Below are positions 261 through 9,720 of a stretch of DNA of 10,398 bases, one piece after another. A program made the translations under genes and the position numbers. Below the pieces are notes generated by a model. That model made no database searches and was not told the origin of the DNA. It worked only from the letters and a program-made list of their open reading frames with translations. Origin of the DNA: a virus; the UHGV virus genome UHGV-0267725; one strand, written 5' to 3'. Position 1 is the stretch's first letter, and every line of letters begins with the position of its first letter.

Positions 261-1022
261 ATGGAAACCGTTTTTGACGCACTGAAAGCAATGGGAAAAG
301 CCACATCGGTAGAACTGGCCGCGCGACTTGATATCAGTCGTGAAGAGGTTCTCAACGAGCTGTGGGAGCTCAAAAGAAATGGCGTCGTTGATAAAACTGG
401 TCACACCTGGTTTCTGGCTGGCGAAGGTGAATCCCTGGTAACCGAAGAGCGGCCAGTAAAATCTGAAGCACAGGATATGCTGACCGGGGAGGTCGAACAA
501 AAAGTTACCGCAGACATGATGATTGAGTTTATCGGTCAGGATGGGGCTAAAACGTGTGAGGAACTGGCGGGTAAGTTCGGCATCAGTACTCGCAAGGTTG
601 CTTCCACGCTGGCGGTGGTAACCGCAACGGGGCGGCTGGCACGCGTTAATCAGAGCGGTAAATTTCGTTACTGCATGCCGGGCGGTAATTTACCAGCAGA
701 GCCGAAAGCAGCATCGGTAACGGAAAATGATGGTAAAGCCTTTCCTCAGCCAGCAGGTGTTGCGTTACCAGTGCAGGAAGTTGCAACACAGGAAGATATT
801 AAAACAGAAACTGTGGCGGACACTTTGCAGTCGCTGCCATCGTTTACTGAAACGCGAGCGGATGACCTGATTTTACCATCGCTGCATATGGCAAACCTCG
901 AACTGCGTCGGGCGAAAAGTCATGTCCAGAAGTGGGAACGAGTCTGCGCCGCGCTGCGGGAGCTGAACAAGCACCGGGATATTCTTCGTGATATTACCGC
1001 GACCGGAGAGCTGCAGCGGTGA
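261..1022 (+). CDS. Phage protein with N-terminal winged-helix-like domain (253 aa); possibly a prophage DUF family (DUF1627-like, unverified)
   Basis: ATG 261 sits 8 nt after GGAGG (248-252). The N-terminal ~45 aa ([41 protein letters not shown]) look like a small wHTH DNA-binding fold. Stop TGA 1020-1022 overlaps the next start (GTGA). Confidence 0.8.
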
Positions 1023-1336
1023 GTGGCTGGAAGAAGTGGTACGAGGCTGAAATCATGATACTCCGGCAGTGTGCGGGAACGATGACGGTCGAAAGCATTG
1101 GGAGGCTGACCGGTCGTACAGGTGATGCTGTCAGAACGAAAGCGCGGGAACTGGGTGTCAGCCTGATGTTACGGGGTGATTATCACCAGTCAACAAAATA
1201 TCCGCAGAGTGATATTGAACTGGCGCGACAGCTGCATCAGCGTGGCGTACCCAGGAGAGAAATCGCCAGAAAATTTGGAATGCCGTTGCGCACAGTGAAT
1301 AACTACGTTTATTTCGACAGGAGAGTTCAGGAGTGA
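1019..1336 (+). CDS. Helix-turn-helix DNA-binding protein (105 aa)
   Basis: GTG 1019 overlaps the upstream stop; an alternative in-frame ATG lies at 1055. The C-terminal segment [20 protein letters not shown] is a classic HTH, and [23 protein letters not shown] is a second HTH-like segment. Stop TGA 1334-1336. Confidence 0.65.
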
Positions 1337-1338
1337 GG

Positions 1339-1632
1339 GTGAGAGTTTATATTGCCGGTCCAATGACCGGGTATAAAAATTTCAACCGTGAGGCGTTTCA
1401 CAAGGCGGAAGATGAACTGAAACGGGAAGGGCATACAGTCTTAAACCCGGCAGTACTTCCGGACGGGCTGACACAGCCACACTACATGGATATTTGCATG
1501 GCGATGATTCGTTGCGTGGATGCGATTTACATGCTGCAAGGCTGGCAGCGGTCAGCAGGCGCTAAGGCGGAACTGGCGCTGGCGGAGAAGCTGGGGCATG
1601 CGGTTATTTTCCAGGAGACAGCCAGTGAGTGA
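1339..1632 (+). CDS. DUF4406-type small protein of the nucleoside 2-deoxyribosyltransferase-like superfamily (about 97 aa)
   Basis: AGGAG 1328-1332 is followed by GTG 1339; GTG 1333 is an alternative start that overlaps the upstream stop. Translation MRVYIAGPMTGYKNF...QGWQRSAGAKAELALAEKLGHAVIF shows an N-terminal Gly-rich loop and a C-terminal S-x-G-x-x-x-E region reminiscent of the NDT-like fold. This is a family assignment from memory. Confidence 0.7.
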   Translation: MRVYIAGPMTGYKNFNREAFHKAEDELKREGHTVLNPAVLPDGLTQPHYMDICMAMIRCVDAIYMLQGWQRSAGAKAELALAEKLGHAVIFQETASE

Positions 1633-1885: not shown

Positions 1886-2044
1886 GCGAAATTAACTTTC
1901 AGGCACTGCGTGACGTGAAAGAGAAAGCATAATCCAAGCCTGAATAATTAAACTCAGCACTGTAAATAAAATTTAATCCTTAACCGGAGGGATTTCTGCA
2001 CCCTCAGAACATCAGGAGGCCGCCTGAAAGGGCGGTAATGAAAA

Positions 2045-2767
2045 ATGACTGAATTAACAAAAGAGCAATTAATCGAAGAAGCTAAATTAAAAATAGCGGT
2101 TGCGAAATGCCACCCCAATTCAGGCGTGGCACGAGTAGAGGGTGAGTTATTCAAAATTGCACTGGCATCGCTGGAAGCAGAGCCAGTGGCATATCAGTAT
2201 CGCCAGTGGGATGCAGAATATGATGAATGGGGAGAATGGGAAGATTGCGGGGAATATGCTTTCGAAAGATTTGTTGAGGAAGAGAAATGCCAGGGGGCAG
2301 GTGTTCAGACCCGTAAGCTATACGCCACGCCGCCAATGCTGGTGGTGCCGGATGAACGGGCTGCCTATGAGTTATTTATGGAGAAGCATTTCGGGGATTC
2401 TGTAGATCGCCGCAGGGTAAAAAATGGCGGTAGTGAATACATGGCATGGGATATGGCGATTGGCTGGATTATCTGGTGTCACCGCGCCGCTATGTTTCAG
2501 GCCGGAAACTTTCGGAAAAATAAGAATTCGTCAACCAGCTCCCCGGCAACTCCGGATGATTGGATAAGCTGTAGTGAGCGAATGCCGGATAGCAAAACAG
2601 CTGTTCTTGTTGCCAGGGAGTTTGACGGGAAAGGTGACTGGCGAATGAAGTGGGCGACTTACATACCGGGACATCCTGATGCTAATGATGGTTGGATAAT
2701 TCCTGGTGCGTCGTGGATTCCATCACACTGGATGCCGCTACCAGAACCGCCGCAGGAGGCGAAATGA
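2045..2767 (+). CDS. Phage protein with C-terminal DUF551-like segment (240 aa)
   Basis: ATG 2045 follows an AT-rich intergenic region (1886-2044). The middle is acidic and Trp-rich, and the C-terminus has W-x-PLPEPP, which I associate with DUF551 phage domains (unverified). Stop TGA 2765-2767 overlaps the next ATG. Confidence 0.75.
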   Translation: MTELTKEQLIEEAKLKIAVAKCHPNSGVARVEGELFKIALASLEAEPVAYQYRQWDAEYDEWGEWEDCGEYAFERFVEEEKCQGAGVQTRKLYATPPMLVVPDERAAYELFMEKHFGDSVDRRRVKNGGSEYMAWDMAIGWIIWCHRAAMFQAGNFRKNKNSSTSSPATPDDWISCSERMPDSKTAVLVAREFDGKGDWRMKWATYIPGHPDANDGWIIPGASWIPSHWMPLPEPPQEAK

Positions 2768-3027
2768 TGGATGTAAAAGAGAAGGTTTTGCAGGTGATGC
2801 GTTCCCGTGCTGCCCTACAAGAGAAAGCTCTCGGTGGTGAATATCCATTCACGATAGCAACCTGGAATCTGCGGTTGGCAATGGAGAAGGAATTTCCTGA
2901 TGAAGAATGGCGTTCGGCAGATTTGCGCAAAATTCTTATAGAGATGGCTAAAGACGGAACAGTATCCAAAGATACCCATGCCAGCCGGATTGGTCAGGCG
3001 GTATGGAGACTGGAGGCGAGGCAATGA
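2764..3027 (+). CDS. Hypothetical phage protein (87 aa)
   Basis: ATG 2764 (ATGATG) overlaps the upstream stop as ATGA. Translation is MMDVKEKVLQVMRSRAALQEK...AVWRLEARQ. The ORF-track start at 2692 lies inside the preceding gene and is not used. Confidence 0.55.
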   Translation: MMDVKEKVLQVMRSRAALQEKALGGEYPFTIATWNLRLAMEKEFPDEEWRSADLRKILIEMAKDGTVSKDTHASRIGQAVWRLEARQ

Positions 3028-3107
3028 GCTGGCCTGAAGCATTCACAACGGTAGGAACTGCAATGGCGGTTGCGCTGGTGGTGTATTCGATTTGCCGCTG
3101 GGGATAA
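3024..3107 (+). CDS. Candidate 27-aa hydrophobic peptide (MSWPEAFTTVGTAMAVALVVYSICRWG)
   Basis: ATG 3024 overlaps the upstream stop (ATGA 3024-3027); stop TAA 3105-3107 lies just before the terminator hairpin. It is below the ORF-track size cutoff. It encodes a single predicted transmembrane-like stretch. It is too short to call confidently. Confidence 0.25.
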   Translation: MSWPEAFTTVGTAMAVALVVYSICRWG

Positions 3108-3118
3108 ATCGCCGAAAA

Positions 3119-3150
3119 AAGATCCCGACACAAACATGAGCCGGGATCTT
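3119..3150. terminator. Bidirectional rho-independent terminator between the + strand gene block and the parDE cassette
   Basis: A 9-bp stem AAGATCCCG (3119-3127) pairs with CGGGATCTT (3142-3150) around a 14-nt loop. It is flanked by an A-run (3115-3120) and T-rich sequence (3149-3157), so a U-tract follows the hairpin on both strands; the minus-strand reading has 6 consecutive T. Confidence 0.55.
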
Positions 3151-3231
3151 TGATTTATATAGCCTACGAATCCGCCAGTAAGAGAGGGGGCGGACGGTTT
3201 ATTCTAACACCGGAATGATGTGGGTAAAAGT

Positions 3232-3531
3232 TTATAAGAAATCGGTTTCATAACTTTGCCCACCATGATAGATACCGACAATAAAGACTTTTCTGCCATC
3301 AACGGCAAAAGCAATAATCGTTCTGTGGCGGAAATGAGTTACCCGCATCCCCTGGCGAATATCATCGCGTTTATTGCCCCGATGCGGGAATGTAGAAAAC
3401 CCATCAAGATAATCAAGAAGCGCATTGGCATAATTGTCAGCAATGACGCTTCCTGCTTTCTCCGTTATGTATCTGTGCAGGTTGATTATCTGCTGTTCGG
3501 CCTCAGGAGTAATGATGACTTCATATGTCAT
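3232..3531 (-). CDS. parE: ParE-family toxin (RelE/ParE superfamily), 99 aa
   Basis: Minus-strand ATG (complement of 3529-3531) gives MTYEVIITPEAEQQIINLHRYITEK...FIVGIYHGGQSYETDFL. It starts 5 nt after the antitoxin stop. Size, position after an RHH antitoxin and the C-terminal R/H-rich region are typical of ParE toxins. The ORF-track extension to 3642 overlaps the antitoxin and is not used. Confidence 0.85.
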   Translation of the reverse strand: MTYEVIITPEAEQQIINLHRYITEKAGSVIADNYANALLDYLDGFSTFPHRGNKRDDIRQGMRVTHFRHRTIIAFAVDGRKVFIVGIYHGGQSYETDFL

Positions 3532-3536
3532 GCAGA

Positions 3537-3794
3537 TTACTTCCCGGATCGAATCGCAGCGCGAACCTGTGAAATGGAGCGTCCGTTGTTCGGGTTTTTG
3601 CGGATTGAATCCAGGGAGGGGGCGGCTGAATGCGTTAACCACGCTTCGATTGCTTTATCGCGCTCATTCAGTGCGCGAAGCCCTTCACGAATGACCTCGC
3701 TTTCTGAAGCATAGGCACCGGAAGCCACACGGGCGCGCACCATGTCAGCCATCTCGTTAGTTAATGTAATGCTGAATTGTTGGGTTGTACGCAT
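3537..3794 (-). CDS. parD: ParD-family antitoxin (ribbon-helix-helix, COG3609-like), 85 aa
   Basis: Minus-strand ATG (complement of 3792-3794) has a good SD (TGAGGT, 6-nt spacer). Translation MRTTQQFSITLTNEMADMVRARVASGAYASESEVIREGLRALNERDKAIEAWL matches the ParD/CC2985-type antitoxin pattern (SE-V-REGLR). It lies immediately upstream of the toxin. Confidence 0.85.
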   Translation of the reverse strand: MRTTQQFSITLTNEMADMVRARVASGAYASESEVIREGLRALNERDKAIEAWLTHSAAPSLDSIRKNPNNGRSISQVRAAIRSGK

Positions 3795-3829
3795 GGTAAA
3801 CCTCAAGGAGTAGGATAGAACACTATTCG

Positions 3830-3857
3830 ATGATAGCACGTTGCCTGTTGACGACAA
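3830..3857 (-). promoter_or_regulatory. Candidate sigma70 promoter for parDE
   Basis: On the minus strand, TTGTCG (complement of 3852-3857), a 16-nt spacer and TATCAT (complement of 3830-3835) lie about 35 nt upstream of the parD ATG. A + strand TTGACG (3847-3852) overlaps this, so a divergent promoter is possible. Based on sequence motif only. Confidence 0.25.
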
Positions 3858-3929
3858 CAGAAATCAGAGACAATATTGCCGCACGCCAGCCTGAACAACT
3901 GGCACCTGCTGCGCCAGCAGAGACAACCA

Positions 3930-4202
3930 ATGGCGCACAAAACCAAATTACACAATTCTGATACCGACCTTGCCATCCGGCACGGGCGGCGTTCTCACAC
4001 ATTCAAATATGACTGGTATCAGCACAATCCCTGCACCGAAGAACAGGCCGAGTGGCTGATTCAGAACTACCGCAGACGTGGTTACGAGTTTCAGAAAGAC
4101 CTCAGTTCTGACTTCCGACACTGGATAATTTCCGTCAGACTCCCTTATTCCGAACGCCCACCGCGTCCGTCCCGCACATTCCAGCAACGGATCTGGAGGT
4201 AA
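3930..4202 (+). CDS. Hypothetical protein (90 aa) translationally coupled to the DUF968 gene
   Basis: The ORF is open from TTG 3876 and the first ATG is at 3930. Stop TAA 4200-4202 lies inside the RBS/start region of the next gene (GGAGG 4195-4199, GTG 4204). The start is uncertain and no family was recognised. Confidence 0.45.
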   Translation: MAHKTKLHNSDTDLAIRHGRRSHTFKYDWYQHNPCTEEQAEWLIQNYRRRGYEFQKDLSSDFRHWIISVRLPYSERPPRPSRTFQQRIWR

Positions 4203-4203
4203 C

Positions 4204-5262
4204 GTGCGGGTATTACTTCGATCTGTTCCGGTACCGGAACTTGGGCTGGTGGTCCTTAAGCCTGGTCGTGAATCCATGCAGGTATTCCGCAGCGGTCGTG
4301 TACTGGTGGAGCCGGAACCGAAAAGCATGCGCGGTCTGCCGTCCGGAGTCGTTCCTGCCGTTCGCCAGCCATTGGCGGAGGATAAATCACTACTGCCATT
4401 TTTCAGCGATGAGCGGGTGATTCGTGCTGCTGGCGGCGCTGGCGCACTGTCTGACTGGCTGTTACGCCATGTTAATTCCTGCCAGTGGCCTCATGGTGAC
4501 TACCATCACAGCGAAACCGTCATACATCGTTACGGTACCGGTGCAATGGTGTTGTGCTGGCACTGCGACAACCAGCTGCGTGACCAGACTTCCGAATCAC
4601 TCGGGCAGCTTGCTCACCAAAACCTGTCAGCATGGATGATTGATGTCATCCGCCACGCAATGAATGGCGCGCAGGAGCGGGAATTATCGCTGGCTGAATT
4701 ATCCTGGTGGGCAACCATAAATAACGTAGCGGACGCACTACCGGAGACGGTATTACGTCGTTCGCTGGGATTACGCGCGGAAAAAATCCGCTCAGTATAC
4801 CGCGAAAGCGACATCATACCGGGAGAGCAGACAGCCACCAGCATACTGAAGCAGCGCACAAAAAATATTGCGCCGTTGCCTCACGCCCACCAGCAACAGA
4901 ATCCACCACAGGAAAAGACGGTGGTCAGCATTGCCGTTGATCCGGAGTCATCGGCTCAGTATCTCCAGCGCCAGAAACCACAACGGGAAGAGATGCCCGT
5001 ATACACGCGCTGGGTAAAAACGCAGAAATGCATGACGTGTGGCAATCAGGCAGATGATCCGCATCACATCATTGGTCATGGACTGGGAGGGATGGGAACA
5101 AAGGCTGATGATTTGTTTGTTATTCCGCTGTGCCGTAAATGCCATAGCGAACTACACGCCGGGGTAAAAGATTTTGAAGAAAAACACGGCAGCCAGCTGT
5201 TGTTGCTGATTCGTTTTTTAATGCACGCGAGAAATTCGGGTGTTCTGAAGTGGAAAGCATAA
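4204..5262 (+). CDS. DUF968-family phage protein with C-terminal HNH-like Cys/His motif (352 aa)
   Basis: GTG 4204 is 4 nt after GGAGG. The C-terminus has C-x2-C...HH-x14-C-x2-C-H (CMTCGNQADDPHHIIGHG...CRKCHSELH). Overall size and pattern resemble DUF968 proteins of E. coli prophages (from memory, YdfU-like). Stop TAA 5260-5262 abuts the rusA ATG. Confidence 0.85.
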   Translation: MRVLLRSVPVPELGLVVLKPGRESMQVFRSGRVLVEPEPKSMRGLPSGVVPAVRQPLAEDKSLLPFFSDERVIRAAGGAGALSDWLLRHVNSCQWPHGDYHHSETVIHRYGTGAMVLCWHCDNQLRDQTSESLGQLAHQNLSAWMIDVIRHAMNGAQERELSLAELSWWATINNVADALPETVLRRSLGLRAEKIRSVYRESDIIPGEQTATSILKQRTKNIAPLPHAHQQQNPPQEKTVVSIAVDPESSAQYLQRQKPQREEMPVYTRWVKTQKCMTCGNQADDPHHIIGHGLGGMGTKADDLFVIPLCRKCHSELHAGVKDFEEKHGSQLLLLIRFLMHARNSGVLKWKA

Positions 5263-5628
5263 ATGACTGAACGCATAGAATTTGTTTTGCCTTACCCGCC
5301 AACGGTGAACACCTACTGGCGACGTCGTGGCAGCACATATTTTGTATCAAAAGCCGGTGAGCGTTATCGCCGTGATGTGGCGCTTATTGTTCGCCAGCAG
5401 CAGTTGAAATTAAGCCTGTCCGGACGGCTGGCGATAAAGATTATTGCAGAGCCACCGGATAAACGTCGTCGTGACCTGGACAATATCCTGAAAGCACCAC
5501 TGGATGCGCTGACGCATGCCGGATTACTCATAGACGACGAGCAGTTTGATGAAATCAATATTGTGCGCGGTCAGCGCGTTCCTGGGGGGCGGCTGGGCGT
5601 GAAGATTTACAAAATTGAGAGTGAGTGA
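5263..5628 (+). CDS. rusA: RusA-family Holliday junction resolvase (121 aa)
   Basis: ATG 5263 directly follows the upstream TAA. Translation contains LPYPPTVNTYWRRRG, PDKRRRDLDNILKAPLDALTHAGLLIDDEQ and GGRLGV, matching the conserved RusA motifs, including the catalytic Asp cluster. Confidence 0.9.
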   Translation: MTERIEFVLPYPPTVNTYWRRRGSTYFVSKAGERYRRDVALIVRQQQLKLSLSGRLAIKIIAEPPDKRRRDLDNILKAPLDALTHAGLLIDDEQFDEINIVRGQRVPGGRLGVKIYKIESE

Positions 5629-6179
5629 TCGTAAATATGATATACCCGGAAATTACAGGCAAAAGCGGCGAGCATTTACGTCTAAAAACGCTGGAAGCCG
5701 TCTGGATCCAGGGGAAATTACGGATGTGGGGGCGTTGGTCGTATATAGGTGGTGGCAAAACAGGAAATATGTTCAATCAGTTGCTGGCATCCAAAAAACT
5801 GACAAAAACCGCAATCAATGAAGCCCTGCGTAGAATCAGGGAGTCAGGGATTGATAAACCAGAGCTGGAAGCATTCTTGCGAGAGATGATCGCTGGCAGA
5901 CAGAAGAGCTGGTTGTCTCACTGTACTGATGCAGAGGCGTTACGCATTGATGGGGTGATAAGTAAAGCGCTTGCACGTTATCCTGGATTGATTGATATCC
6001 TGCGGCAAAGATACGAAGGGCGGGGGATGAGTAAACGCAAAATGGCTGAATTGTTGAATGAGGTGCACCCGGAATGGTGTTTTAGTACATGCGAAAAGCG
6101 AATTGCTAATTGGTTGGCTGTTGCTGAATATGCGCTATACATCCCTATGCGAGAATCGTTTGCTCAAAAAATGTCTTGA
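5625..6179 (+). CDS. Q-position protein, putative late-gene antiterminator (184 aa from GTG 5625, or 180 aa from ATG 5637)
   Basis: The start overlaps the rusA stop (GTGA). The gene lies immediately upstream of a promoter-like element and a strong intrinsic terminator, which is the lambdoid Q/pR'/tR' position. The protein has no obvious Cys4 finger, so its family is uncertain (a non-lambda-type Q or a DUF). The functional call is positional inference only. Confidence 0.7.
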   Translation: MIVNMIYPEITGKSGEHLRLKTLEAVWIQGKLRMWGRWSYIGGGKTGNMFNQLLASKKLTKTAINEALRRIRESGIDKPELEAFLREMIAGRQKSWLSHCTDAEALRIDGVISKALARYPGLIDILRQRYEGRGMSKRKMAELLNEVHPEWCFSTCEKRIANWLAVAEYALYIPMRESFAQKMS

Positions 6180-6204
6180 TTTTTTACGCATAAACTGTTT
6201 CAAT
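6176..6204 (+). promoter_or_regulatory. Candidate late promoter (pR'-like) downstream of the Q-position gene
   Basis: TTGATT (6176-6181), a 17-nt spacer and an extended -10 TGtTTCAAT (6196-6204) would place the transcription start near 6211. That gives a transcript of about 77 nt ending at the terminator at 6262-6288. Based on sequence motif only. Confidence 0.3.
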
Positions 6205-6261
6205 CCAGCTACGCTTCGCAAAGCTATACCGCGAGGCGAATAGCAGACATGGACACCTGAA

Positions 6262-6288
6262 AGAACCCGCTTTATGCGGGTTTTTTTA
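6262..6288 (+). terminator. Rho-independent terminator (tR'-like)
   Basis: A 7-bp GC-rich stem AACCCGC (6264-6270) pairs with GCGGGTT (6276-6282) around the loop TTTAT, and the T-run continues to 6287. Confidence 0.8.
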
Positions 6289-6428
6289 TGCCTGAAAAAC
6301 GGCACAGAACATTAAACGCGCTGGTAGTTGTGAATACTGGGCTTTCAGCTTGCTGGCTTTTTGGACAAGAGTTATTGGTATGTCACGTTAACCGGAAAAG
6401 GAAAAAAGACATGCTAAAACAGTAGGAT

Positions 6429-6608
6429 ATGACCGAAACCGCCAGAGTGGTGTTTAATGAATTAAGCGTCACCGAACCGGCGACCGTCGGGGAAATTGCG
6501 CAGAATACTTACCTTTCACGCGAACGCTGCCAGTTAATACTGACTCAGCTTGTTATGGCGGGTCTGGCAGATTATCAGTTCGGTTGTTACAGACGCCTTC
6601 CGCAGTGA
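6429..6608 (+). CDS. Candidate small winged-helix protein (59 aa) upstream of the methyltransferase
   Basis: ATG 6429 to TGA 6606-6608, below the ORF-track size cutoff. Translation MTETARVVFNELSVTEPATVGEIAQNTYLSRERCQLILTQLVMAGLADYQ resembles the N-terminal wHTH of the 261-1022 protein. The SD is weak (AGGA only 1-2 nt from the ATG), so coding status is uncertain. Confidence 0.3.
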   Translation: MTETARVVFNELSVTEPATVGEIAQNTYLSRERCQLILTQLVMAGLADYQFGCYRRLPQ

Positions 6609-6758
6609 AGGCTTTTTAATTTGTGGTAATGGGCGGCTGGTGGGTGTTAGCGGCACCTGCCAGCCATCTGCTCATGCGTTGGGGTCACAAGCAAACCTCA
6701 GGCCCATCTGCTTTGCGCAAAAGCGGTATGAGCCTATCAGAGAAGTGCTTATTGATCT

Positions 6759-7808
6759 ATGGCCAATACTGTAAAAATATCCAGTTGTGAGTTAATCAAC
6801 GCTGATTGCCTGGAATTTATCCAGACCTTACCGGAAAATTCTGTCGATCTGATAGTCACAGACCCGCCATACTTTAAAGTGAAGCCCGAGGGCTGGGATA
6901 ACCAGTGGAAGGGCGACGATGATTACCTGCAATGGCTGGAGCAGTGTCTGGCGCAGTTCTGGCGGGTACTGAAGCCTGCCGGAAGTCTTTACCTGTTCTG
7001 TGGTCATCGCCTGGCATCTGACACCGAAATCATGATGCGTGAGCGCTTTAATGTGCTGAACCACATTATCTGGGCGAAGCCGTCCGGACGCTGGAACGGA
7101 TGCAACAAGGAAAGCCTGCGGGCGTATTTCCCCGCCACAGAGCGCATTCTGTTCGCGGAACATTATCAGGGGCCGTATCGTCCGAAAGATGCCGGGTATG
7201 CGGCGAAGGGCAGTGCACTGAAACAGCATGTGATGGCCCCGCTGATTGCTTACTTTCGTGATGCGCGAGCTGCCCTGGGGATAACGGCAAAACAGATTGC
7301 AGATGCCACAGGAAAGAAAAACATGGTGTCGCACTGGTTCAGTGCCAGTCAGTGGCAGCTACCGAACGAAAGCGATTATCTGAAATTACAGTCGCTGTTT
7401 GCCCGGGTGGCAGAAGAGAAACATCAGCGCGGTGAACTGGAAAAGCCCCACCACCAGCTGGTGGATACGTATACGTCACTGAACCGGCAGTATGTGGAGC
7501 TGCAGAGTGAATATAAGCATCTGCGGCGGTATTTTGGTGTGACGGCGCAGGTGCCGTACACGGATGTGTGGACACATAAACCGGTGCAGTTCTATCCCGG
7601 GAAACATCCGTGCGAAAAACCGGCAGAAATGCTGCAGCAGATAATCAGCGCAAGCAGTCGTCCGGGTGACCTGGTTGCAGATTTTTTTATGGGCTCAGGT
7701 TCAACGGTAAAAGCTGCACTGGCGCTCGGGCGTCGTGCGATTGGCGTTGAACTGGAGACCGGACGTTTTGAGCAGACAGTCAGGGAAGTTCAGGATTTAA
7801 TCGTTTGA
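6759..7808 (+). CDS. DNA amino-methyltransferase, beta class (N6-adenine or N4-cytosine), 349 aa, orphan
   Basis: Motif IV DPPY (LIVTDPPYF) lies near the N-terminus and motif I FxGxGS (DLVADFFMGSGSTVKAALALGRRAIGVE) near the C-terminus. This motif order defines the beta class. No restriction endonuclease candidate is adjacent. Confidence 0.9.
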   Translation: MANTVKISSCELINADCLEFIQTLPENSVDLIVTDPPYFKVKPEGWDNQWKGDDDYLQWLEQCLAQFWRVLKPAGSLYLFCGHRLASDTEIMMRERFNVLNHIIWAKPSGRWNGCNKESLRAYFPATERILFAEHYQGPYRPKDAGYAAKGSALKQHVMAPLIAYFRDARAALGITAKQIADATGKKNMVSHWFSASQWQLPNESDYLKLQSLFARVAEEKHQRGELEKPHHQLVDTYTSLNRQYVELQSEYKHLRRYFGVTAQVPYTDVWTHKPVQFYPGKHPCEKPAEMLQQIISASSRPGDLVADFFMGSGSTVKAALALGRRAIGVELETGRFEQTVREVQDLIV

Positions 7809-7857
7809 AACGGATGATATTGAAGAATTAATTACGCGTCGTTATTATGCGGCTCCC

Positions 7858-7933
7858 GGCCCTTTAGCTCAGTGGTGAGAGCGAGCGACTCATAATCGCC
7901 AGGTCGCTGGTTCAAATCCAGCAAGGGCCACCA
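7858..7933 (+). tRNA. ileZ: tRNA with anticodon CAU, Ile2 (lysidine) type, ileZ-like; 76 nt
   Basis: I folded the cloverleaf by hand: acceptor GGCCCTT/AAGGGCC, D-stem GCTC/GAGC, anticodon loop CTCATAA, T-arm GCTGG-TTCAAAT-CCAGC, discriminator A, encoded CCA. The sequence closely resembles E. coli tRNA-Ile2 as I recall it. Confidence 0.9.
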
Positions 7934-7934
7934 A

Positions 7935-8011
7935 CCGCCATTAGCTCATCGGGATAGAACGCCAGCCTTCGAAGCTGGTTTCGCGGGGTTCGAGTCTCCG
8001 ATGGCGGTCCA
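7935..8011 (+). tRNA. argN: tRNA-Arg, anticodon UCG, argN-like; 77 nt
   Basis: Acceptor CCGCCAT/ATGGCGG, anticodon stem CCAGC/GCTGG with loop CTTCGAA, T-arm CGGGG-TTCGAGT-CTCCG with one G-U pair, encoded CCA. The D-stem has one mismatch. Confidence 0.88.
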
Positions 8012-8024
8012 TTATCGGTATTCT

Positions 8025-8101
8025 GCGTTGTTAGCTCAGCCGGACAGAGCAATTGCCTTCTAAGCAATCGGTCACTGGTTCGAATCCAGTACAACGCACC
8101 A
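8025..8101 (+). tRNA. argO: tRNA-Arg, anticodon UCU, argO-like; 77 nt
   Basis: Acceptor GCGTTGT/ACAACGC, anticodon stem ATTGC/GCAAT with loop CTTCTAA, T-arm ACTGG-TTCGAAT-CCAGT, discriminator A, encoded CCA. Confidence 0.9.
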
Positions 8102-8270
8102 CACTTATTTTCCCTCGCTCGCTTTTGCGGACCTTTTTTGTATCCGCACCACGCCCGGCGCATACCAACCACAGAGCCTTTCGGGGGGAGCTTATGGAGT
8201 GGTCAGTGTGACTTTCTCTGTGGGCAGATCGCTCCCGGGCGTTGGCTCCCCCACCCAAAGAAACGTCACG

Positions 8271-8689
8271 ATGTTTGGTATTTTTGGTAAAAAGGCCCGC
8301 AGAGCGGCAACGGAAATTAAAAAGTTTTAAAAACGCGATCTGGCACAGGCGGTGATTAACGCCGCATACCTGGTGGCTTGTGCAGGTGGTGAGTGAGGCT
8401 TCCGATCGAACAGGTACTGCGTAATCAGCCAGCGCTGTCCGCGTTTACGTCAGAAATTAATGCGATGAGCGCAACCATTATCGGTCAGCTGGATACGAAC
8501 TTTAAAATTGGTCGTCGTGCGGCGTTACGTGAGATCGAGGATGTGAAACACGATACGCGTGAAGCGGAAGATGTGCTGGATGTGGCGGTGGCCATTGCGG
8601 AGGCAGACGGCGAAATTGAGCCGGAAGAGCGCAAGGTGCTGGAAGAGATTGCCGGTGTTCTGGGTCTTCGTATGGATAATCACCTGTGA
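8271..8689 (+). pseudogene. Decayed TerB-like (tellurite-resistance TerB family) gene; the 3' part (GTG 8393-8689, 98 aa) remains an intact ORF
   Basis: The reading is interrupted twice. ATG 8271 gives MFGIFGKKARRAATEIKKF and hits TAA at 8328-8330. The same frame continues as KRDLAQAVINAAYLVACAGGE and stops at TGA 8394-8396. A second frame, shifted relative to the first, then carries ...AEDVLDVAVAIAEADGEIEPEERKVLEEIAGVLGL to 8689. The two A-x-ADGE-type segments look like the two halves of a TerB fold split by a premature stop and a frameshift near 8390. Confidence 0.45.
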
Positions 8690-8853
8690 CGGTAAAACTG
8701 CGCCTGGTTGTGGCTGCACTCCTGCTGTTTCTGGTGGTGATGGTGGATTTCACCAGCAGAATCATGTCGGTGCTGGCGGATGGGGTGCTGGTCTGCGGCA
8801 TTGTGGTATTGCTGTGGCCGGTGATAAAAAGAAACAGCCTGCATAATGCTTGA
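8686..8853 (+). CDS. Candidate small membrane protein (55 aa, two hydrophobic segments)
   Basis: GTG 8686 overlaps the TerB-like ORF stop (GTGA); stop TGA 8851-8853. Translation is VTVKLRLVVAALLLFLVVMVDFTSRIMSVLADGVLVCGIVVLLWPVIKRNSLHNA. There is no SD, so translation would depend on coupling. It is below the ORF-track size cutoff. Confidence 0.35.
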   Translation: MTVKLRLVVAALLLFLVVMVDFTSRIMSVLADGVLVCGIVVLLWPVIKRNSLHNA

Positions 8854-9068
8854 TTTTTTTGTTTACTGTTTATTAAAAACACTTCTGCATGGTGAATCCC
8901 CCTGTGCGGAGGGGCGACTGGTGTAGGTAGCATTTATTATGTTATAGGCAAGCCGACGCGGGTTCAGTGACACCGGCTGAATTCACCGGGAGGCACCCGG
9001 CACCATGCGCTGCAACAAAAGTGTTATTTCTGTTTTTCTCAAACTATCATCGTTATCCCTTTATTTCC

Positions 9069-9095
9069 GGCTGCGCATGGCGCGGCCTTTTTTTT
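9069..9095 (+). terminator. Rho-independent terminator inside the long non-coding stretch
   Basis: An 8-bp stem GGCTGCGC (9069-9076) pairs with GCGCGGCC (9080-9087) with one G-U pair, around the loop ATG, followed by 8 T (9088-9095). Confidence 0.7.
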
Positions 9096-9276
9096 ACGAC
9101 CAGCCACTGGCAGATGGTCATCCTGTGATTTGATTCCGGTTCCGGCTTTTTAACTCTGTTCCTGTACACGGGAGAAATTCGATGTCGATTAATCGTTATG
9201 ATATTGGTTACACGAAGTACCACGTATGGTGTTGAGATAAAAAGCCTGGTGCCAGAGGTAAATGCAGCAGCATCAT

Positions 9277-9325
9277 AAAAAAAGAGCCAGCGCAGAAGAG
9301 AACGGGTAAAAGAGTCTGCGCTGGC
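9277..9325 (-). terminator. Candidate minus-strand terminator / 11-bp perfect inverted repeat
   Basis: GCCAGCGCAGA (9286-9296) and TCTGCGCTGGC (9315-9325) are perfect inverted repeats separated by 18 nt. On the minus strand the hairpin is followed by TCTTTTTTT (complement of 9277-9285). The loop is long for a classic terminator, so this could instead be a protein-binding site. Confidence 0.4.
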
Positions 9326-9504
9326 GTGGGGATATTCCCCGTGGAGAAATGATATGTAACACACATCGGGAACCTTTCTATATAAACATTATCATTATTG
9401 TCAATCATAACAGTCAGGTATTATGACGTTTATGCCTCAGGGACATCAGGAATTAACTGGTGGCTTTTTATTGTTGTCAGCTTCCGGATAACGGGAGACG
9501 GGGT

Positions 9505-9720
9505 ATGGACCAGATGGAAAAAATCACAACAGGTGTGTCATACACCACTTCAGCGGTGGGGACGGGATACTGGCTACTGCAGTTGCTGGACAAAGTCTCC
9601 CCATCCCAGTGGGTGGCAATAGGTGTATTGGGTAGCCTGGTGTTTGGCCTGCTGACGTATCTGACAAACCTTTATTTCAAGATTAAAGAAGACAAGCGTA
9701 AGGCTGCACGGGGAGAGTAA
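9505..9720 (+). CDS. S: Class II holin, phage 21 S-type pinholin with dual start (71 aa antiholin from ATG 9505, 68 aa holin from ATG 9514)
   Basis: GGGAGA (9493-9498) precedes ATG 9505. Translation [71 protein letters not shown] has the Met1/Met4 dual-start motif, two transmembrane segments and a basic C-terminus. It is near-identical in pattern to S21/EssD as I recall it. Confidence 0.9.

Follow-up and report, generated by a model that had tools for sequence, protein, structure and literature searches.

The window analyzed here is the whole 10,398-nt stretch of the virus genome UHGV-0267725, and its central elements are a cluster of three transfer RNA (tRNA) genes, ileZ, argN, and argO, and the site directly downstream of them, herein referred to as the cargo slot. 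Gene order was established by Pfam and PHROGs profile searches of the window proteins, and tRNA genes were called over the whole window with ARAGORN and the Rfam tRNA model (gathering score 29 bits). Exactly three tRNA genes were found by ARAGORN, adjacent to one another, all on the plus strand, in the order CAU-UCG-UCU. An earlier note on this DNA had given the same anticodons and positions, on which ARAGORN and Rfam agree; the Rfam E-values, from 1e-14 to 6e-7, are far from chance. The cluster lies in the late region, between a Q-like gene (5625-6179) and a holin gene (9460-9720). The proposed order of elements is the Q-like antiterminator, a hairpin, a small open reading frame (ORF), a methylase, ileZ-argN-argO, the slot, an STnc100-family small RNA (sRNA), and the lysis genes (Table 1).

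The cluster is the ileZ-argN-argO set known from Shiga toxin (Stx) phages, as the earlier note had named it: its genes are 100%, 92.2%, and 98.7% identical, respectively, to those of phage Stx2a_1447, and the cluster as a whole is 87.8% identical to that of phage 933W. Positions 7707-8150 of the window match 933W 20969-21419 at 87.8%. The comparison with 933W, which the earlier note had proposed for locating the breakpoint, places it at window 8150, corresponding to 933W 21419; this is 43 nt before the stxA2 ATG and 11 nt past the 933W feature annotated as 'possible rho-independent terminator upstream of the stx genes'. Homology to 933W returns at window 8869-9008, which corresponds to the STnc100-like element located 87 nt after the stxB2 stop in 933W, and once more at the holin. 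Because this homology breaks before stxA2 and resumes after stxB2, tciA-tciB (about 710 bp), found in the window, and stx2AB (about 1370 bp) are alternative fillings of one slot. The slot is bounded on the left by the post-argO terminator, with the edge ~10 nt past the T-run, and on the right by the STnc100-family sRNA.

No coding match to stx was found anywhere in the window, either by tblastn with StxA2 and StxB2 or by blastn (word size 7) with the whole stx2 locus of Stx2a_1447. The stx2 locus matches the window solely in the opening 49 nt of the argO-stxA2 spacer (8102-8150, 87.8%), and the presence of stx remnants in the window was rejected, this shared spacer being all that matched. The 169 nt between argO and the next gene (8102-8270) contain no ORF of note, in agreement with the earlier description of about 170 bp with neither a long ORF nor a toxin gene. 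As stxA and stxB, the defining feature, were tested for and are absent, the locus is not that of a Stx-converting phage.

The gene after this spacer is tciA, a member of the TerB family, and the earlier description of it as decayed was borne out. Relative to the intact copies in phages Evi and JLK-2012, codon 20 is changed from GAG to TAA (8328-8330), 2 bp are deleted after 8392, and 11 bp are deleted after 8403 (net 13 bp). Two frames jointly align to residues 1-41 and 40-143 of the Evi TciA, and an uninterrupted frame of about 143 codons is not present. The TerB domain (PF05099) is recognized in the C-terminal fragment with 32 bits against a cutoff of 24.4, and the intact homologue matches phrog_632. 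All 17 of the 17 tciA-type copies with at least 90% identity among the listed IMG/VR matches are uninterrupted over the available sequence; therefore the decay is local to the window copy. An exact 36-mer spanning both deletions has no match in the species-representative genomes. The following gene, tciB, is intact, and its product is 98% identical to the TciB of Evi. No PADLOC match pointing to a defence role was found for tciAB.

The tciA gene is preceded by a leader that starts at the left slot edge. Among the matches listed, this leader was found in 30 IMG/VR loci, where it precedes tciA, a divergent tciA-like gene, or remnants, and it is absent from every empty slot and every stx2 slot. 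A structured RNA or riboswitch in 8102-8285 was considered and rejected, with no Rfam match above noise and a folding z of -0.2; an alignment of 18 distinct leaders gives a weak consensus fold only. The leader is also kept in loci where tciAB is gone or truncated (L019, L021, L077, L093, and L008). Some of these carry a leader remnant, then a terminator, then directly the holin, and L008 retains a tciA-like gene as a 3' fragment, with a tciB-like gene after it. From their sequences, the leader remnants before a terminator and holin look like products of tciAB loss and not like an sRNA gene. Survival of the leader next to truncated or missing tciAB suggests repeated independent loss of this cargo.

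The terminator between argO and the slot, homologous to the one annotated in 933W, is degraded in the window. Positions 8114-8139 fold at -4.4 kcal/mol (z = -0.8), as compared with -14.8 kcal/mol in 933W and -14.0 kcal/mol in Evi, and this hairpin is the weakest among the 118 loci compared, among the matches listed. An identical degraded allele was found in a non-Stx prophage of strain EDL933.

Table 1. Features of the 10,398-nt window, with the basis for each assignment.
Feature	Position	Strand	Basis
DUF1627 protein	261-1022		Pfam/PHROGs
Helix-turn-helix (HTH) protein	1019-1336		Pfam/PHROGs
DUF4406 protein	1333-1632		Pfam/PHROGs
DUF551 protein	2045-2767		Pfam/PHROGs
ParE/ParD toxin-antitoxin pair	3232-3857	minus	Pfam/PHROGs
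DUF968 protein	4204-5262		Pfam/PHROGs
RusA	5263-5628		Pfam/PHROGs
Q-like late antiterminator (DUF1133 / Phage_antitermQ; phrog_753)	5625-6179	+	Profile matches
Strong intrinsic-terminator hairpin, about 85 nt after Q	6262-6290	+	Folding and T-run
Small conserved ORF, 59 codons, phrog_331 (function not assigned)	6429-6608	+	PHROGs
N6/N4 DNA methyltransferase, 349 aa	6759-7808	+	Pfam N6_N4_Mtase 153.7 bits; PADLOC MTase_II 547 bits
pT-type putative tRNA promoter, TTGAAG-17-TATTAT, ending 9 nt before ileZ	7820-7848	+	Consensus scan
ileZ, tRNA with CAU anticodon, Ile2 (putatively lysidine) type	7858-7933	+	ARAGORN; Rfam 72.5 bits
argN, tRNA-Arg(UCG), diverged allele	7935-8011	+	ARAGORN; Rfam 44.4 bits only
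argO, tRNA-Arg(UCU)	8025-8101	+	ARAGORN; Rfam 71.4 bits
Degraded copy of post-argO intrinsic terminator	8114-8139	+	Homologous to annotated 933W terminator
5' leader of tciA cassette, from left slot edge	8151-8270	+	Conserved across IMG/VR loci
tciA (TerB family) pseudogene	8271-8689	+	Aligned to intact copies of phages Evi and JLK-2012
tciB (DUF3927), intact, 55 codons, membrane-protein gene	8686-8853	+	Pfam DUF3927 63.6 bits; phrog_1470
STnc100-family prophage sRNA, right slot boundary	8861-9041	+	Rfam RF02076
Intrinsic terminator after sRNA	9069-9095	+	Folding, -15.4 kcal/mol
nanS-p (SASA esterase) remnant, 17-codon ORF, start fused to C-terminal end	9182-9235	+	tblastn
P21-type holin S, start of lysis cassette	9460-9720	+	Pfam Phage_holin_2_1 111.4 bits

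Occupancy of the slot was surveyed in an IMG/VR sample. An exact 25-mer of argO retrieved at least 120 loci, and the 113 of them with at least 400 nt downstream were classified; the counts refer to the matches listed, and the percentages are indicative only. The slot is empty, with the sRNA within 150 nt, in 63 loci (56%). Genes stx2AB were found in 13 loci (about 12%), or in 14 with the locus L040, in which a StxA2 match of only 86 residues is followed by a full-length StxB2 at the usual spacing; judged by this sequence, stx2 fills the slot of L040, with stxA disrupted. A tciAB pair with at least 90% identity occupies 12 loci (11%), in 5 more (4%) some 600 bp of additional sequence containing two small ORFs stands before such a pair, and a divergent tciAB-like pair was found in 7 (6%). 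Four loci (4%) have a tciB-like gene only, and four (4%) have a tciA-type leader without tciAB. Other inserts were found in 5 loci (4%), namely a 108-aa ORF in three, a 311-aa methyltransferase in L060, and L040. In total, tciAB-type cargo accounts for about 21% of the 113 loci.

Complete genomes of Escherichia coli were also compared. Some part of window 7850-8860 is matched in 3082 of the 5426 genomes, and the tRNA-tciA-tciB module (at least 80% of 7850-8860) was found in 781 of them. RefSeq labels within the module are tRNA-Ile, tRNA-Arg twice, 'tellurite resistance TerB family protein', and 'DUF3927 family protein'. Coverage of 80% of the window is not reached by any complete E. coli genome. 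The closest backbone relatives are non-Stx: E. coli AST19 has an empty slot, and strain 700481, 95.6% identical over 1940-8284, has a divergent tciAB pair in it. The window is itself a mosaic: its identity to AST19 is 98.7% over 1940-6092 and drops to about 91% over 6166-8220. There are 295 matching phage records, most of them named as Stx-converting, and a layout of q, tRNAs, stx, nanS-p, and S has been described for Stx2a, Stx2c, and Stx2d phages (PMC7366253). The impression that the layout is that of Stx phages comes from which phages were isolated and sequenced.

A scan of genome contigs with the argO 25-mer returned mostly tRNA-Val genes of Bacteroidales with the same 3' half, and the triplet itself was carried by one Escherichia sp. 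contig and one contig of a Proteobacteria metagenome-assembled genome. This taxonomic scan is uninformative because the 25-mer matches tRNA-Val, apparently by chance or convergence. In several Bacteroidales genomes (L128-L138), tRNA-Val(GAC) has the same 25-nt 3' half as argO.

Taken together, the window is very probably the late-regulatory region of a non-Stx lambda-like prophage of E. coli with a general cargo slot. The tRNA cluster would belong to the phage as a module driven by a promoter of its own, pT, and would also form part of the Q-dependent late transcript. It would supply tRNAs that read AUA, AGA/AGG, and CGA/CGG, which are used more in the genes of this phage than in host genes. 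The slot would serve as a general 'moron' site for stx2AB, tciAB, other genes, or nothing, and holds tciAB here; by analogy with stx2 in 933W, its cargo would be co-transcribed with the late operon upon Q action. Because the post-argO terminator hairpin is degraded, read-through from pT into the slot may be possible in a lysogen of the window lineage. Several points weigh against this interpretation. Consensus matches, folding energies, and homology with 933W features, themselves largely 'putative', are the basis for the proposed promoter, terminator, and Q dependence, and the IMG/VR sample was selected on an exact argO 25-mer. Identity over the module stays below 99% in all 5426 complete E. 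coli genomes, and neither the methylase nor the Q protein of the window has an exact match in a collection of 15 billion proteins.

The earlier note had proposed a Stx-phage backbone carrying other cargo. What stands of this is that tciAB occupies the same slot as stx2AB; the backbone is a late-region layout common among lambda-like E. coli prophages, the majority of which have no toxin. A stronger form, in which the prophage had a Stx-converting ancestor and tciAB took the place of its stx2AB, would account for the flanks shared with Stx2 phages up to the slot edges, the left one (6276-8150) being 92% identical to Stx2a_1447 and the right one carrying an STnc100-like element, and for the likeness of the stx2 and tciA leaders: past the terminator T-run their first ~10 nt agree, and a similar CCAAAGGAAC motif precedes the ATG in both. 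This descent is improbable, however, since the window has no stx remnant, stx is absent from most carriers of the tRNA module among the matches listed, AST19 and strain 700481 are non-Stx, and the tRNA-tciAB stretch is closest to non-Stx prophages and to Evi; no support was found for the window locus having carried stx.

Identity of the first tRNA also bears on the interpretation as an Ile-Arg-Arg set, since ARAGORN labels 7858-7933 as Met and several GenBank phage records label the CAU tRNA as tRNA-Met, which would make the set Met-Arg-Arg. Met is the ARAGORN default for every CAU anticodon, and the alignment argues for isoleucine. The window ileZ is identical to that of Stx2a_1447 in all 76 positions and to K-12 ileX in 68 of 76 (89.5%), against 52 of 77 (67.5%) for the elongator tRNA-Met gene metT and 46 of 77 (59.7%) for the initiator gene metV. 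It has the acceptor-stem pairs C4-G69 and C5-G68, as ileX does, where tRNA-Met has U-A and A-U in the alignment; these pairs are determinants for TilS. Homologues of the window ileZ carry the tRNA-Ile label in RefSeq. A tRNA-Met is thus highly unlikely, and sequence comparison supports an Ile2-type CAU tRNA closer to ileX than to tRNA-Met, in which C34 would be converted to lysidine by TilS and which would be charged with isoleucine.

The idea that the tRNAs are host chromosomal genes marking the integration site, which draws on the frequent use of tRNA genes as integration targets and on a preprint reading of tRNA matches near prophage sRNAs as integration-site remnants (bioRxiv 10.64898/2026.05.13.724894), has almost no probability left. 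The genome record of phage 933W contains the cluster, which in practice refutes the idea; in addition, the methylase and lysis genes of the phage late region enclose the cluster, which is also present in the Evi record, has no integrase or attachment-site context near it, and has no equivalent in K-12, where only ileX (89.5%) and argU (71.4%) are related. The same preprint ties TerB, RusA, and DUF1627 genes as well as STnc100 to the prophage sRNAs PasA/C/D and describes the neighbouring tRNA matches as absent from phage genomes (bioRxiv 10.64898/2026.05.13.724894). Contrary to that reading, the tRNAs of the window are phage-borne and occur in 295 phage records.

The three tRNA genes differ in how well they are conserved. 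The window argN has a C-A mismatch in the D stem, and its allele is identical to that of the EDL933 non-Stx prophage; argO matches Stx2a_1447 in 76 of 77 positions, with A, not G, at the discriminator position. Alleles were compared across 118 argO loci, in which the 3' end of argO, but not ileZ and argN, was fixed by the search pattern. Among the matches listed, argN occurs in 33 alleles in 96 copies, 40 of which (about 40%) have at least one stem mismatch, and the middle tRNA was undetected in 17 of the 118 loci. One ileZ allele accounts for 85 of 97 copies, and stems of argO are perfect in 111 of 118. Since argN is far more variable than ileZ and argO, constraint on it seems relaxed across the family. 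A tentative possibility is that only ileZ and argO are under strong constraint, with selection for AUA and AGA/AGG decoding and with argN decaying family-wide, and that in the terminator-disabled lineage of the window and the EDL933 prophage the slot cargo could be under the tRNA promoter in lysogens and not under Q alone. In Evi, the middle tRNA (Evi ~4090-4170, by alignment) has the anticodon loop CCUUUAA in place of the UCG of argN; read by eye from this loop, its anticodon is probably UUU. Because Evi carries a different anticodon loop there, the middle position of the cluster seems exchangeable too.

Genes of the window contain 11.9 ATA, 8.9 AGA, 5.1 AGG, and 8.1 CGA per 1000 codons, and K-12 rpoD contains none of the four. 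By standard K-12 tables, the window rates are approximately two- to fourfold the host mean. The earlier suggestion that these tRNAs read rare codons of the cargo genes fits stx2A, in which 15 of 20 Ile codons are ATA and 8 of 24 Arg codons are AGA or AGG, and not intact tciA, with none of 13 Ile codons ATA and one of 10 Arg codons AGA. A better view is that the tRNAs serve the whole phage.

Upstream of the tRNAs, the Q-like gene scores 343.9 bits with Pfam DUF1133, 28.2 bits with PF06530 (cutoff 26), and 261.7 bits with PHROG 753, 'anti-termination protein Q-like'. As a correction to the Q-tRNA architecture of the earlier note, Q is not adjacent to the tRNAs: a hairpin, the 59-codon ORF, and the 349-aa methylase stand between them. 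The hairpin, which folds over 6255-6295 at -18.2 kcal/mol (z = -6.2) and is followed by a T-run, is, from its position, the likely tR' of the late promoter region; no confident promoter or Q-utilisation site was recognized downstream of Q. Homology to the late region of Stx2a_1447 starts at 6276, inside this hairpin; therefore, the Q gene and its promoter region appear to have been exchanged separately from the methylase-tRNA block. A hypothetical protein is annotated in relatives at the same position as the ORF. The methylase stands directly upstream of the tRNAs, and the putative promoter between them aligns column for column with the 933W feature 'pT; putative tRNA promoter'. The ParE/ParD pair, apparently intact, lies in opposite orientation amid the early-region genes, and the closest E. 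coli relatives carry an annotation of this pair as well.

On the right flank, the sRNA matches RF02076 over the full model length with 117.6 bits against a gathering score of 47, and homologous STnc100-like elements are located 87 nt after stxB2 in both 933W and Stx2a_1447. STnc100 has been related to PasD sRNAs (bioRxiv 10.64898/2026.05.13.724894). The esterase gene nanS-p usually sits after this sRNA; here the NanS-p match in tblastn is limited to residues 589-616, about the last 28 codons. Evi is in the same deletion state and 97% identical over 9200-9440, and the homology to EDL933 and JLK-2012 ends at 9206, just inside the esterase start. A minus-strand match to Esr41 (9275-9365) reaches 28 bits where the gathering score is 102 and was treated as due to chance. 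The holin is 87% identical to the S region of 933W.

Every element of the locus already belongs to a described family, and the tRNA-TerB-DUF3927 order is annotated in hundreds of genomes. The tRNA cluster, pT, and the terminator were known beforehand, all being annotated in the 933W record; the open-access literature search found nothing on ileZ/argN/argO, and the annotation of that record was relied on instead. The sole local peculiarity is decay, which affects tciA, the terminator hairpin, and nanS-p. What is useful here is that the cargo slot is now precisely defined and that, in a rough census, toxin genes occupy it in a minority of cases. This aids the interpretation of 'Stx-phage-like' prophages in genome scans, where the tRNA triplet alone is no sign of a toxin phage, present or former.

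In comparison with known systems, the profiles for tciA and tciB (phrog_632, 233 bits, and phrog_1470, 104 bits) are both classed as moron in PHROGs. These genes are named after tciA-C of phage P1, and the window copy of tciA is unable to make the full-length protein. Functions ascribed to them, by annotation only, are tellurite or colicin resistance and cell-division inhibition.

The Stx2 phages 933W (NC_000924, 21082-21408) and Stx2a_1447 have the same three tRNAs in the same order as the window, pT where the window has a pT-like site, and a homologous terminator after argO (identity 87.8-92%), followed downstream by the STnc100-like element and the S holin. Stx2a_1447 also shares the methylase directly upstream of the tRNAs, whereas in 933W Q is not parted from the tRNAs by a methylase. 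The window differs from the Stx2 phages in having tciA (pseudogene)-tciB in the slot without stxAB, a weaker terminator hairpin, a Q from a different family, and only a remnant of nanS-p.

A closer match was found in EDL933 (O157:H7), where a non-Stx prophage at about 2.42 Mb (NZ_CP120944) is 93.9% identical over window 7827-9206. Its order is Q, tRNA-Ile, two tRNA-Arg genes, TerB, DUF3927, the sRNA region, the SASA esterase, and the holin, and it shares the argN allele and the weakened terminator with the window. Unlike in the window, tciA is intact, the esterase is of full length, Q is of a different type, and no methylase separates Q from the tRNAs. Escherichia phage Evi (LR597642), 92% identical over 7827-9500, has the tRNAs, tciA, tciB, the sRNA, an esterase-less spacer, and the holin, as in the window, but its tciA is intact, its middle-tRNA anticodon loop differs, and Q lies directly upstream without a methylase. 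The locus belongs to a wider family of lambdoid late regions that also includes the Stx phages.

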